From the NCBI RefSeq assembly GCF_036588685.1, contig NC_086384.1, positions 53,816,001 through 53,880,000 on the forward strand: a stretch of 64,000 bases of DNA, in the 5' to 3' direction. The notes beneath the pieces are model-generated. The model was not told the DNA's origin and did not search any database. It saw only the letters and a program-made list of their open reading frames with translations. This document shows positions 1 to 44,385 of this stretch, in pieces; within the stretch, counting starts at the first letter, position 1, and the number at the start of each line of letters is the position of its first letter. This DNA comes from Mytilus trossulus (taxonomy: Eukaryota). Position numbers and translations under genes: made by a program.

Positions 1-885
1 TTTGACCATGTAAAGACAGCTTAACCATTTTGACAATGTCAACACAGATTAACCATTAATACTTTGTCAAGACAGCTTGATCATTTTGTCAATGCCATGA
101 CATATTAACCATTTTGACCATGTCAAGACAGATTAACCATTTGACGATGTCAAGACAGATTAACCATTTTGACCATGTCAAGACAGATTAACCATTTGAC
201 TATGTCAAGACAGATTAACCATTTTGACTATGTCAAAACAGATTAACCATTTTGACTATGTCAAAACAGATTAACCATTTTGACCATGTCAAGACAGATT
301 AACCATTTTGTCTATGTCAAGACAGATTAACCATCTTGACTATGTCAAAACAGATTAACCATTTTGACCATGCCATGACAGATTAACCATTTTGACTATG
401 TCAAGACAGATTAACCATCTTGACTATGTCAAAACAGATTAACCATTTTGACCATGTCAAGACAGATTAACCATTTTGTCTATGTCACGACAGCTTAACC
501 ATTTTGACTATGTCAAAACAGATTAACCATTTAGACTATGTCAAGACAGATTAACCATTTTGACTATGTCAAGCAGATTAACCATCTTGACTATGTCAAA
601 ACAGATTAACCATTTTGACCATGTTAAAACAGATTAACCATTTTGACCATGTCAAGATAGATTAACCATTTTGACTATGTCAAAACAGATTAACCATTTT
701 GACCATGTCAAGACAGATTAACCATTTTGACAATGTCAAGACAGATTAACCATTTTGACCATGTCAAGACAGATGAACCATTTTGACTATGTCAAAACAG
801 ATTAACCATTTTGACTATATCAAGACAGAAAAACGATTTTGATTGTGCAAGACAGAATAACCATTTTGATAATGTCAAGGCAGAA
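1..885 (+). repeat. 28-bp tandem satellite (ACCATTTTGACTATGTCAAGACAGATTA), about 31 copies, runs off the window start
   Basis: Period 28 (GATTAA at 241, 269...); unit core matches the SAM exon sequence CATTTTGACTATGTCAAGACAGA. Confidence 0.95.
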
Positions 886-939
886 TAATTATTTTAACTT
901 AAATATGATAATTTGTTATATTAAAATAATTTTGACCAT

Positions 940-1281
940 GTTTTGACATTATCTTAGATTTAGGGTTATTTTGACTATGTTTTTATATTTTCATTTCAGA
1001 CATTACCATATTGACTATGATTTGATATTATCTTTCGAGACTTGGCCCTTTTTGACTATGATTTGATATTTTCTTTAAAGACTTTAATGGTCATTTTGAC
1101 TATATTTTTGATATTATCTTTTCAGACGTGGTCATTTTGACTATGATTTGATATTTTCTTTACAGACTTGGTCATGACTATATTTTTTATATTACTTTTT
1201 CAGACTTGGTCATTTTGACTATGATTTGATATTTTCTTTACAGACTTGGTCATGACTATATTTTAGATATTATTTTTTCAG

Positions 1282-1300
<19 letters not shown>
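940..1300 (+). repeat. About 38-42-bp tandem repeat of the SAM-exon 3' splice site plus first ~19 exon nt
   Basis: Successive (T)nCAG|ACTTGGTCA(TTT)TGACTAT copies near 1125, 1164, 1203, 1243, ending in the real acceptor at 1281; more degenerate copies upstream. Confidence 0.9.
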
Positions 1301-24109
<22,809 letters not shown>

Positions 24110-28392: not shown

Positions 28393-28844
28393 CTTACCCT
28401 CGTCCCTGTGTGTGGTTTCTGTCGAACACATAATGGAATAAACACACGTAAATTCGAAATAGGGTATGACATATTCAGACAGGGCTGCCAGCTTCACCCT
28501 GACCTGTCAAATTGGCAGCCCACTGTACTGAAATTTGAAACCCATTCAGCAATATTGTGTTTATATATTGAACCAGCAACATGTCAATCAGATGTTGATT
28601 CTTGAATAGAATTCAGGTAAAGTAGTCCATCAGCAGTAATATACCTTTACCGTCAAGCTACCAAAATAAGGCAAAAAAGGAGACCATTTTGGTGCTTAGA
28701 AATACAAGTTTAAGAATTTAGAAAAAGGCTTGAAAATCGAAGAATACATCGACGAAGAAGCACCAATACAGACCCTTGCTTACGGACATCACGTGCAATG
28801 TCGTATTTTAAAATTTGACTTGATAGCAAATATTTTTTTCATGA

Positions 28845-29906
28845 CAGGTCTTCCAAGTGCTCCACGAAACCCCTTTCTAAATTATTAACATTCATTTTAT
28901 CAGCAATCAAAGACGGGCTTCAAAGTTATTGTGTAACTGCCTATTCTAGAGGTGGCGTGAATCAGATGTGGATACTTAAAATTCCAAAGATCTTTTAGAG
29001 TACATACAATCTAACTCTCTTTCATCTTGTAACAGTATTAAAACATTTGACTTTTCTACTCTTTACACAAGTATTCCACATTCCAAACTAAAAGACAAAT
29101 TAAAAGAGTTGGTATTACTTTGCTTCATTAAAAAGAATGGCCAACGTAGATACAAGTATCTCGTCTTAGGGAGGGATAAATCCTATTTTGTAAAGAATCA
29201 TTCTGATTCAAATAAAAAATTCTCTGAAACCGATATTATCAAGATGCTTTATTTCTTGATTGACAACATATTTGTTACGTTCGGAGGACGTGTTTTTCAA
29301 CAGACTGTCGGCATCCCAATGGGAACAAACTGTGCCCCTCTACTCGCTGACTTGCTTCTTTATTATTATGAGGCTGACTTCATGCAGGAAGAAAGATAAG
29401 AAGTTAGCAATATCCTTTAACTCTACTTTCCGCTATATAGATGACGTTCTTTCACTAAGCAATTCAAAATTTGGTGACTATGTGGATCGCATCTATCCCA
29501 TCGAACTGGAGATAAAGGATACTACTGATACAGTTAAGTCGGCTTCATATCTTGACTTACATCTAGAAATTGACAATGAGGGTCGGTTGAAGACAAAACT
29601 TTACGACAAAAGAGATGATTTCAGCTTTCCAATTGTGAACTTTCCATTTCTAAGTAGCAACATTCCAGCAGCACCTGCATACGGGGTATATATCTCCCAA
29701 TTGATACGATATTCCCGTGCTTGCATTTCCTATCATGATTTCTTGATAGAGGGTTACTGCTCACAAGGAAGCTATTAAACAAAGAGTTCCAAATGGTGAA
29801 GTTGAAATCATATCTTCGTAAATTTTACGGACGCCATCACGAGTTGGTTGACCGTTATGGAATAACCGTTTCACAAATGATATCGGATATGTTCCTTACG
29901 TCGTAA
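28845..29906 (+). mobile_element. Penelope-like reverse transcriptase fragment (disrupted)
   Basis: KTFDFSTLYTSIPH, FQQTVGIPMGTNCAPLLADL, FRYIDDVL, YGVYISQLIRY motifs across frameshifted ORFs 29109-29399 and 29260-29778. Confidence 0.85.
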
Positions 29907-41116: not shown

Positions 41117-44100
41117 ATGGATGCATATACGGTTGTGCTATTATCAGGTATGTACAAAACAAATATTTCTAAAAAGTTTTAACTCGTTTTGCGAGCCTTT
41201 GAATGTTTAAATTTAATGAAACTTTTTATTCTTAATTTAAGAAATTGCATGTTAAAATATGTGTCAATATTTCATGATTTTCTTGATTGGTCATTATGTT
41301 GTCCGCTATCAGTTTTTAGACGTTTTTGAAGAACTTTTACCTTGTTTGTAATATAAATATTTGAGAGATATACTATAATGTTTGAATACCCTTATTTGAG
41401 ATATTTGATATCTATAGGCAATGGCGGATCAGGAAGCGTAGAGGTCGTACGACTCCCTTAATTTGGTCACAAAAAAAGAAGAAATAAATCTTAATATCTT
41501 GTTTCTAATTGTGACATCAAACTACAAATACTATGTTTCCTTAATATGTTTACTTACTACCGCTTAAAAAAAAACTGTTAATCTGGTCACTATTGTTTAT
41601 TGTGACAAAGAAGGCTTGTATAAACAAAGATATTATTAATTTTTCAAAATCGTTTATTTGTTAAGACTTTTGCAATTGCTTTAAGCGCCTCTGGTGAGTC
41701 TTATCTAGTCATAATGCGCCGTCTGACGTAAGCACGTTATAAGCCTGACATACTAAATAGCTTTTTTATAAGATCGAAATGACTCTTTTATACTGTAGAT
41801 TCATTATTATTCGTCGAATACAATTTTTTCGGTGAATTCTTGGAGACATGTGAATCACAAATATCAATGTTAAAATTTTCTACAAATATGTTTGCAGATT
41901 TTGCCTACCCCGCGAGATAAAATATCCACGAAAATGCAATTTTCCATCATTCCAAGAAAATTACAACCACGAGAAAAAATCAAACCAAATTATTTCATTA
42001 TTTTAAAGTACAACACTATACAGATAATTTTTCTGAATTCCTAAGAGAGGTAAATAATCTATACTGAATAAATGAAAACGCAACCCATACCTGTTTGTTC
42101 ATGTCATAAAAAATAAAACTGACGGATTTTGACTGGAAAATTAACCAACTGTTCTAACACTTCGTGACTTTTATTGTTCACCTACCTAATTATACTATTT
42201 ACCGGGCTCGTAATAACATAAACAAAACGACGGGTGCCACATGTGGAGCAGGATCTGATTACCTTCAGGAGTACCTGAGATCACACCGCTTTTTGTCGGG
42301 GTTCGTGTTGCTAAGTCTTTGTTTTGGTATACTATATTATTGTGTCATGTATACTATTGTTTGTCTGTTTTTATTTTTCATTTTTAGTCATGGCGTTGTC
42401 AGTTTATTTCCAATCTATGAGTTTGATAGTCCCTCTGGCATCTTTCTCCCCTGTTTTAACATATTTGTATGCCAAAACTTTGCAGCAATTTTTTTTTTAC
42501 ATTGCCAATCATTTTCAAGGTTCAATTTGAAGATGTTCATGTGTCCATATCTAAAAAAATATAAAGGAGACCTTCTTTACTAATATACTCGGAAGTATCC
42601 TTAAGGAGGTTTACTACCCAATTTCAAAATAAATAGCTTCCATAACACTAGTATATATTGAAAGGGGATTAATTAAGGAATAAAAAAAGCAAATATAATT
42701 GAAATCAATTGACAATGAGATGACAGAAACGAAAACGATAAAATAGATTAACAGGATACAAAACACAAAATAATAGTCTAAAGACTAAGCAACACAATTC
42801 CCCACCAAAATCTGCCATTTTACCAATATCTACGTGTTTCGAACGACAAAATAACAAACAAACATTTCAAAACAAAAAAATACAGCATAAATTAAAGCTG
42901 AATCAAAGAATATAATAAGATAATTGCAAATCATATTTTTTATCGCATATATTCGCACTTTAGGATGTTTTGTCGTTGGAAGCTGTACACTCGAACTACT
43001 ATGGCCATTGAATAATGTTACATACACGTCAGAAATCAAACTGAATTCCCAGAATCAAGATCGAGCAGCTGGATGCAATATGAAATTCGCACAAGATATG
43101 CCACCTAATTTCCAAAATCTTGCAGTTTCTACTGATAATAATCACTGGATTGATATTAGAATTGAAGACAATATTTCTTTTCAAAATAAAGACTATATGT
43201 TCTCAGGCTGGTTTAAGACATATAATCCAAATGGTGCTTTGATTCACTACAAAAGTGATGATACAACAGGACAATTTCTTGAACTAAAGGCAATGCTGAA
43301 TAATTCAAATATCATATTCACGAGAAAATTAAAAACTGCCAACGAAACTGGATCCATAGGCGTCACATTGAGCCCGAATAGCTGGAATTATTTGGCATTT
43401 GGCATCGATATAAGCAACGGTAAAATACAAATTTGTTATGATGGAACCAATATATATGACGGAGCCGACAGTTTTGTGGACATAGACATGAAGCTACCAG
43501 GTACATTGCGCATAGGCAGAAGTTTTGATGACGTTGATCCAACCTTTGATGGAGATGTGACCTGCGTTGCATTGCATAACGATAAAGGAGCTCCTTTATC
43601 GGATTCAGAGATCGAATGTAAGAACACTATCCCTGACGAATCATGTAAGTTGTTTATAAATATCGAAAATAACCACCATCTCGTTCTTATTATATAGTAT
43701 ACTGTTAGATAAAATCCATTTATATTATGTCAAGATTCTAAATATGTAATGGCTAATAGTATAACTGGCGAAAAATTTCCTAATAATTTGTAGCTTCAAT
43801 CTACCAAACACAGTGTTATACTGATGTTCAAAAGTCATTAATATATTAAGGAAAAACAAATTCTGGTTACAAATTAAAACCGAGGGATACATTTGAACTA
43901 TAGTGTAAGAGGTAAAGAACGGAACAGAAACATAAAACTGCAACAAATAACCAAAGTCTGTTATGGAACAGAATATAGTTATTCTCTCGAGGAGTTAGGG
44001 CCTATCATTTAAAATATAAACATTTATTTAAGTATGTTTGATTGACAATTTGGCCCTTAATTCTTTTCATTTACAGAACGATTAATTTCTATCATGTATT

Positions 44101-44385
44101 TTGAAAATTTCTAAATCAAACTATTGATTTTCAGATAAACCAATATGTCCGGACAGGAATGTAGGAACATACACAAGTATCAATAACGGGATGTCTAACC
44201 TACGTACGATCAGTACGAGTACTGTGTGCTCCGTGTTCCAATGTGGTATCGTTTGTCTAAAGCTGACATCGTGTAAATACATACAGTATAATCTGACCAC
44301 TGAAGGTTGTAACACATGTTATTTGCTGACCATTGGTTCTGGTAGCTTCGATTTGAATAACGGAGAGGTTTTTGAATTGGGATAA
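41117..44385 (+). CDS. Probably secreted LamG/concanavalin A-like plus PAN/apple protein, paralog B; exons 41117-41147, 42964-43644, 44135-44385
   Basis: MDAYTVVLLSGCFVVGSC-TLELLWPL...YMFSGWF...GTLRIGR...FDGDVTC, then ICPDRNVG...CSVFQCGIVCLKLTSCKYIQYNL..C..CYLL; same intron phases as paralog A. Confidence 0.8.

Follow-up and report, generated by a model that had tools for sequence, protein, structure and literature searches.

Tandem copies of a splice acceptor at the SAM-domain exon of a Mytilus ACK1/TNK2 gene, probably silent and tolerated products of duplication

In the lancelet globin gene BflGb6, the 3' end of an intron and the start of the following exon are repeated in tandem, with six units in one haplotype and three in another, an arrangement that was termed a mirage and that, as described, leaves splicing unaffected by RT-PCR (PMC3087553). 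The reported unit range of mirages is 10-160 bp, with 150-160 bp in BflGb6 and 10-72 bp in Adh3 (PMC3087553), somatic instability is reported for Adh3, and further lancelet cases are described in BflGb9, Adh3, troponin C and PGBD5 (PMC3087553, PMC3902484). In humans, a 68-bp duplication of the acceptor intron/exon junction of CBS (844ins68) is reported to use the downstream site, which is strongly favoured, and to give normal mRNA (PMC2630376). The end unit of a 37-bp VNTR in intron 7 of human F7 is likewise described as spanning an exon-intron boundary, on the donor side and with the true site first (PMC1557585), and tandem repeats at boundaries in human duplicated genes are reported to arise by slippage or unequal crossing-over and to make new introns or alternative transcripts (PMC2812944).

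The mussel locus described here adds to the lancelet mirage and CBS 844ins68 kind. We think it probable that it is a splice-acceptor-spanning minisatellite of nine tandem copies of about 40 bases, the last of which is joined in the transcripts seen, and that the extra copies are a tolerated product of slippage or unequal crossing-over rather than a regulatory device. As in the lancelet mirages described (PMC3087553, PMC3902484), intron end and exon start are repeated in tandem, many copies keep their AG, the edge units are less homogenised and normal splicing is seen; the unit spans the exon-intron boundary and its size lies within the reported range. The mussel case differs from those descriptions in its mollusc host, its 39-41-bp unit and its 78-bp dimer, and in a gene with three separate arrays and a derived, exon-only 28-bp array upstream. 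CBS 844ins68 is a human polymorphism with one extra copy (PMC2630376), whereas the mussel has eight extra copies shared across runs. The F7 VNTR, as described, resembles the donor-side array at 17965 more than the array at the SAM exon (PMC1557585), and, unlike the reported human boundary repeats (PMC2812944), the mussel array lies in an old intron, with no alternative form seen. A literature search, judged by titles and the starts of abstracts, found no report of such an array in Mytilus.

The window, by which we mean the whole stretch of DNA analysed, comprises 64,000 nucleotides of M. trossulus (GCF_036588685.1, NC_086384.1, positions 53,816,001 to 53,880,000 of the forward strand). Twelve exons of an ACK1/TNK2 kinase gene lie on its + strand, in the first 24 kb. 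The exon model has AG/GT at all internal boundaries and no internal stops, is identical to the M. trossulus protein P0048 at 1064/1064 residues, and shares 1042-1044 of 1064 residues with M. galloprovincialis and M. edulis proteins. Pfam finds SAM_TNK, tyrosine kinase, SH3, GTPase-binding (CRIB) and UBA-like domains in P0048, and by these sequence comparisons the host gene is ACK1/TNK2 of a Mytilus trossulus-like animal. Exons upstream of the SAM exon lie outside the window; among the Mytilus models listed, two different upstream exons, ending in VTR or KPQ, join the acceptor at 1281, both in phase 2. Models from four Mytilus species (P0047, P0051, P0054 and P0056) have the KPQ-ending exon as an alternative, short first exon and use the same acceptor with it; this exon replaces half of the SAM domain and sits upstream of the window. 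At position 1331 the window has T (Leu) and 8/8 runs compared have A (Met), while the Leu is common to most M. trossulus models listed. Elsewhere in the window, broken frames at 4821-5605 (inside an ACK intron) and 28700-29775 look like retroelement remains, as judged by eye from the list of open reading frames, and a 257-codon stop-free frame at 42924-43694 and a Cys-rich frame of 85 codons at 44128-44382, both downstream of ACK, are possibly exons of another gene. The features that matter here are collected in Table 1.

Table 1. Positions, in the window, of the SAM exon, its acceptor array and the other arrays of the gene
Feature	Positions	Strand	Remarks
28-bp array cut by the window start, 32 copies or more	1..899	+	Unit has 23 nt identical to exon 1289-1311
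Acceptor-spanning minisatellite, 8 decoy units and true unit	929..1301	+	TRF and unit alignment
Four 5' units: AG at 957 (TAG), 999 (CAG), 1039 (GAG), 1080 (AAG)	940..1103	+	73-79% identical to true unit
Four clear decoys, CAG at 1125, 1165, 1203, 1243	1104..1259	+	Acceptor scores 6.7-8.6; true site 7.45
True 3' splice site, phase 2, within Arg or Gln codon	1260..1281	+	Only 22 nt that are not exon-derived repeat
Extra TAG, 15 nt 5' of true acceptor	1264..1266	+	In frame, stop-free, +5 residues; score 1.06
SAM-domain exon of ACK1/TNK2, 130 nt	1282..1411	+	Pfam SAM_TNK, E 3e-13; GT donor at 1412
Next exon	2411..2605	+	Follows 1411 directly in 4/4 spliced runs
Independent 52-bp acceptor array at kinase exon	6536..10237	+	TRF; true acceptor 10203
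Independent 28-bp donor-side array, 3 copies of exon end and donor, true exon first	17965..18047	+	Exon ends at 17971

An earlier note on this sequence had counted at least four clear and several degenerate copies ahead of the acceptor at 1281. Indeed, TRF and alignment of the units give eight extra ones: TRF returned a 39-41-bp array of 9.3 copies, scoring 341, and at 964-1301 a higher-order period of 78 bp, scoring 413, against a top score of 62 among 200 base shuffles of 900-1420. Each unit consists of 18-22 nt of intron end with its AG and 16-23 nt of exon start, at a spacing of 37-44 bp, and the decoy AGs end at 957, 999, 1039, 1080, 1125, 1165, 1203 and 1243 (the earlier note's 1164 is the A of the AG at 1164-1165). 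The alternation of long and short variants that had also been noticed holds over the last five units, where exon parts of 19 nt (1125, 1203, 1281) alternate with exon parts of 16 nt (1165, 1243) in a 78-bp long/short dimer. Units 1165 and 1243 are exactly alike, 1125 and 1203 are each 93% identical to the true unit, and 957 and 999 are 73-74% identical to it, a pattern of homogenised inner and diverged edge units as in mirage minisatellites. A 21-mer made of the AG and 19 exon nucleotides, allowing up to 3 mismatches, occurs on the + strand of the 64 kb only at 1124, 1202 and 1280, and in 100 shuffles there was no match. The splice signal is kept: the AG in 8/8 decoys, and CAG with a strong acceptor score in 5/8. 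Among the four 5' units only 999 is strong by score; that this unit is as strong an acceptor as the four named before, and that an in-frame TAG lies at 1266, had escaped the earlier note. On the minus strand, no stop-free stretch of more than 45 codons was found over 800-1500.

The array adjoins long repeats and holds a 58-bp exact duplicate, which would fit an assembly artefact. We compared it over 770-1500 with DNA runs X1, X2, X7 and X9, which carry four organism labels. The 5' units and the 28-bp array are present in all four. An X1 contig matches 789-1148 with 2 differences and no gaps, further contigs match 1157-1226 and 1235-1296 with 0 differences, the three other runs carry diverged versions, and the units differ among themselves. 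An artefact is thus refuted as far as the presence of the array is concerned, and we give it next to no weight; the exact copy number is provisional. The array is real and common to runs under four organism labels. It also appears in several forms. X1 shows a second allele, in which 6 nt are inserted after 1165; one X2 contig is shorter by about 72 nt (about two units), and one X7 contig joins 1084 to 1255 via 9 other letters, which makes it about 161 nt, or about four units, shorter; both of the shorter forms could be collapses of short-read assembly. In X9, two diverged haplotypes extend to 1139 without a bridge to the exon. Copy number likely varies among the runs, with short-read collapse as the alternative. 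In the lancelet mirages it is described as differing between haplotypes (PMC3087553).

The RNA data were assembled contigs from four probable RNA runs of three studies, out of 24 runs listed, compared over 900-2700; such contigs drop rare forms and would miss decayed transcripts, and the RNA animals may carry array alleles other than that of the window. In X6, X17 and X10 (two studies), one contig each passes from the upstream coding exon straight into 1282 and then into the exon at 2411, with a 3-base overlap at 1279-1281 that arises because the upstream exon ends in the same letters. The X21 contig also starts at 1279 and joins 1411 to the 2411 exon. Contig depth over 900-1265 was zero in 4/4 spliced runs; as absent RNA cover over this stretch alone is not proof, it is the direct joins that carry the argument for non-use. 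The earlier note had proposed comparing junction use at the AGs near 1125, 1164, 1203 and 1243 with that at 1281, and in the spliced contigs we saw no use of these or of the other decoys, nor of the TAG at 1266. Again, among the 15 Mytilus models listed (of 29 cluster members) none has an insertion at the junction and all use 1281. A search for short proteins running from the upstream exon into decoy sequence gave 38 matches, and 0/12 of those read did so, none of the 12 being a Mytilus transcript product. Regular splicing is undisturbed in the major form, as seen in the contigs of four runs and the 15 models listed, and the extra acceptors are probably silent.

We scored the decoys with an acceptor matrix built from the gene's 10 other acceptors, which is a small training set. 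With this small matrix, the decoys at 999, 1125, 1165, 1203 and 1243 score within the range given in Table 1, around the true site, and outscore all 638 background intronic AGs and all 10 genuine acceptors scored with one left out at a time. The five score like genuine acceptors, and weakness does not account for their silence. If spliced to, any one of the eight decoys would bring a stop within 2-38 codons (17-38 for the four clear ones), far upstream of the last junction; the weak TAG at 1266 is the sole in-frame, stop-free alternative. In an array of mutually exclusive exons of the Dscam type, every copy is a complete exon that has a donor of its own. Such an arrangement was rejected here: the copies hold only the short stretches of exon-like sequence given above, and no donor-like GT was found in the array (940-1281), so they cannot be exons of their own. 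As for branch points, TTGAC lies at -26/-27 of six decoy AGs, and four of the five strong decoys have a yTnAy motif at this distance, while the true site lacks it in the window haplotype, being preceded by a short variant without full yTnAy; the motif is weak evidence, as it is absent at 5/10 genuine acceptors. A fold of the RNA of 940-1420 pairs parts of the decoy tracts with the exon (z -2.2); as shuffles are a poor null for a repeat, we give it no weight.

These properties bear on the possibility that the decoys are used at a low, regulated rate that leads to nonsense-mediated decay, with copy number tuning the dose of ACK1. Five decoys as strong as real acceptors, an early stop from every decoy, an apparently variable copy number and the fact that unstable forms would escape contigs would all fit such a role. 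Against it speak the empty stretch over 900-1265 in 4/4 spliced runs, the 0/15 Mytilus models with an insertion, the lack of a conserved array in 28 distinct orthologous loci with one exception (L040, below), and the lancelet cases, which are described as being without aberrant mRNA (PMC3087553, PMC3902484). We therefore regard dose tuning as unlikely. With silent extra acceptors, which we favour, the last acceptor would win by being nearest to the only donor and because its use retains the entire exon, enhancers included; transcripts that leak to a decoy would be degraded by nonsense-mediated decay. With human data, one study states in its abstract a cross-exon proximity rule for long introns, while its section 9 has exon definition only reducing the preference for the upstream 3' site (PMC9225289); proximity to the donor may thus not suffice, and decay may hide a leak. 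The persistence of the array across four organism labels also counts against a silent by-product.

The age of the intron was judged from 46 loci fetched from metagenome contigs, of which 37 (28 distinct) break at this codon and the other nine break elsewhere or not at all. An AG stands at the same phase-2 position in 37/37 tested loci, and thus the intron predates the array. This decides a further alternative, that the intron was itself created by tandem duplication: everything from base 1 of the window to the acceptor is exon-related repeat, and a model of intron gain from repeats is in print (PMC3087553, PMC2812944), but the same phase-2 intron occurs without an array in 27/28 distinct loci of other animals and the genomic ORFs P0003, P0004 and P0080-P0084 are interrupted at the same Arg. 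The shared position refutes an intron born from the array, an origin that we hold to be extremely improbable. In the one exception, L040, the orthologous ACK acceptor is duplicated over 47 bp (1-95), with an intron part unrelated to that of the mussel array; the two copies differ by one base, and the duplication ends a few bases after the same TTTGACTATG. The contig begins at the repeat, and more copies may exist. L040 appears clam-like from the likeness, judged by eye, of its protein to P0014, the ACK of Mercenaria. Further along this contig, at 2570-3000, lies a repeat of about 67 bp that is unrelated.

Repeats derived from exon sequence are also found elsewhere in the gene. The 28-bp array upstream, whose exon-derived nature the earlier note had not recognised, matches exon 1289-1311 at 23/23 nt, with 22 copies at up to 2 mismatches and 0 in 100 shuffles. 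Its unit is a near copy of exon bases 1282-1310 and has no polypyrimidine tract; an inverted repeat lies within it, and the strong DNA fold of a dimer (z -4.6) may have aided the growth of the array. The decoy at 999 has a variant start like that of the 28-bp unit, closer still in runs X7 and X9. At the kinase exon, old, degenerate long copies of the exon start lie upstream, at 6431, 7291 and 8468; the first is identical to the kinase exon at 48/66 nt, and at 22/33 beyond the 52-bp unit. Each of the three is preceded by a 25-bp repeat, and those at 7291 and 8468 lie within larger duplicated blocks that interrupt the 52-bp array. Over 9120-10237, most of the 52-bp copies and the true kinase exon differ at synonymous positions; one of the exon's changes is also present in a few copies close to the 3' end. 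An intronic array of 53/77-bp units at 19703-21223 starts about 100 nt after the donor at 19598 and is not evidently exon-derived. The unit at the SAM exon is unrelated to the 52-bp unit, in agreement with the earlier note (local score 17 against a shuffle mean of 17.0, P=0.51).

The earlier note had also seen splice-acceptor amplification recurring within this gene to the same design, with the true exon last. Recurrence goes beyond that claim, since independent arrays span 3/23 splice sites of the window (acceptors 1281 and 10203 and donor 17971). The supposed design needs no selection: whenever a tandem duplication crosses an acceptor, the complete exon comes last, in the order intron end, exon start, intron end, whole exon, and the true exon's place is thus geometry, not evidence of design. 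Whether three arrays exceed chance depends on the null. With uniform placement of the 12 merged arrays in the gene, which lets arrays cover whole exons, 3.2 are expected over a splice site (P=0.70); with placement limited to 40 nt of exon entry, 0.58 are expected against 3 (P=0.018, post hoc). A k-mer test found 3/24 exon edges of the window duplicated against 0/204 in 33 other animal loci, leaving out 13 duplicate loci and the L040 acceptor edge, which is less than 60 nt from the contig start. These tests are biased: it was the arrays that led to the choice of the gene, and repeats break up or collapse in short-read contigs. Enrichment of arrays at splice sites is suggested, not shown, and the 3/23 sites together with the independent L040 duplication suggest an excess over a simple neutral expectation, on the post hoc P value above.

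Such an excess would be expected if short duplications in bivalves had mutational or survival hotspots at splice boundaries, and at this exon start in particular, for example with the exon's own TTGAC standing in as branch point for the copy downstream. The k-mer counts, the TTGAC ahead of six decoy AGs, and L040, an independent duplication of the same acceptor that ends a few bases after the same TTTGACTATG, point in this direction. However, the 0/204 is biased low by short-read contigs and not all of its edges are real splice sites, the gene was picked for having arrays, and the variant that precedes the true acceptor is the short one without full yTnAy. Seed hairpins, which were considered as an origin and rejected, are not significant in DNA folds of the three mussel seeds and L040 (z -1.57, -1.41, -1.11, -0.32, -0.52 and +1.39). 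We regard hotspots as possible but tentative; they are compatible with tolerated, silent copies. Unlikely, to our minds, is a broader scheme in which bivalve splice sites are repeated mirage hotspots in generations, from long boundary copy to short units to exon-only satellites, with this exon start struck independently in a mussel and a clam-like bivalve and with 4-8 full-strength decoys giving an allele-dependent leak into nonsense-mediated decay that sets ACK1 dose.

For the tolerated by-product that we favour, a plausible course of events can be outlined. A first duplication across the acceptor would necessarily have left the full exon last, and would have been survivable because of it; such duplications would survive if the last site is used, whereas 38-41-bp duplications inside the exon would shift the frame. 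Further rounds would have given two unit types and then the 78-bp dimer while the 5' copies decayed, with growth by slippage or unequal crossing-over, as the unit pattern and the account of the lancelet arrays suggest (PMC3087553). An older boundary copy with at least 30 exon bases may have seeded the exon-only 28-bp array, in parallel with the long degenerate exon copies upstream of the 52-bp array.

As a single locus, the array is ordinary, one more mirage; the main points of note are the full-strength but ignored decoys, the derived 28-bp array and the independent duplication in L040, and its value is that of a natural experiment. In mussels, alleles whose strong upstream acceptors number from about four to about eight seem to be segregating, and with them one could test directly how the spliceosome of an invertebrate passes over perfect decoys. 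The presence of three arrays in a single gene, and of an independent duplication in L040, hints at minisatellites across splice boundaries, a kind published mainly from lancelets and humans, being frequent in bivalves; if so, gene annotation, and models of intron sliding and gain, would have to take them into account.
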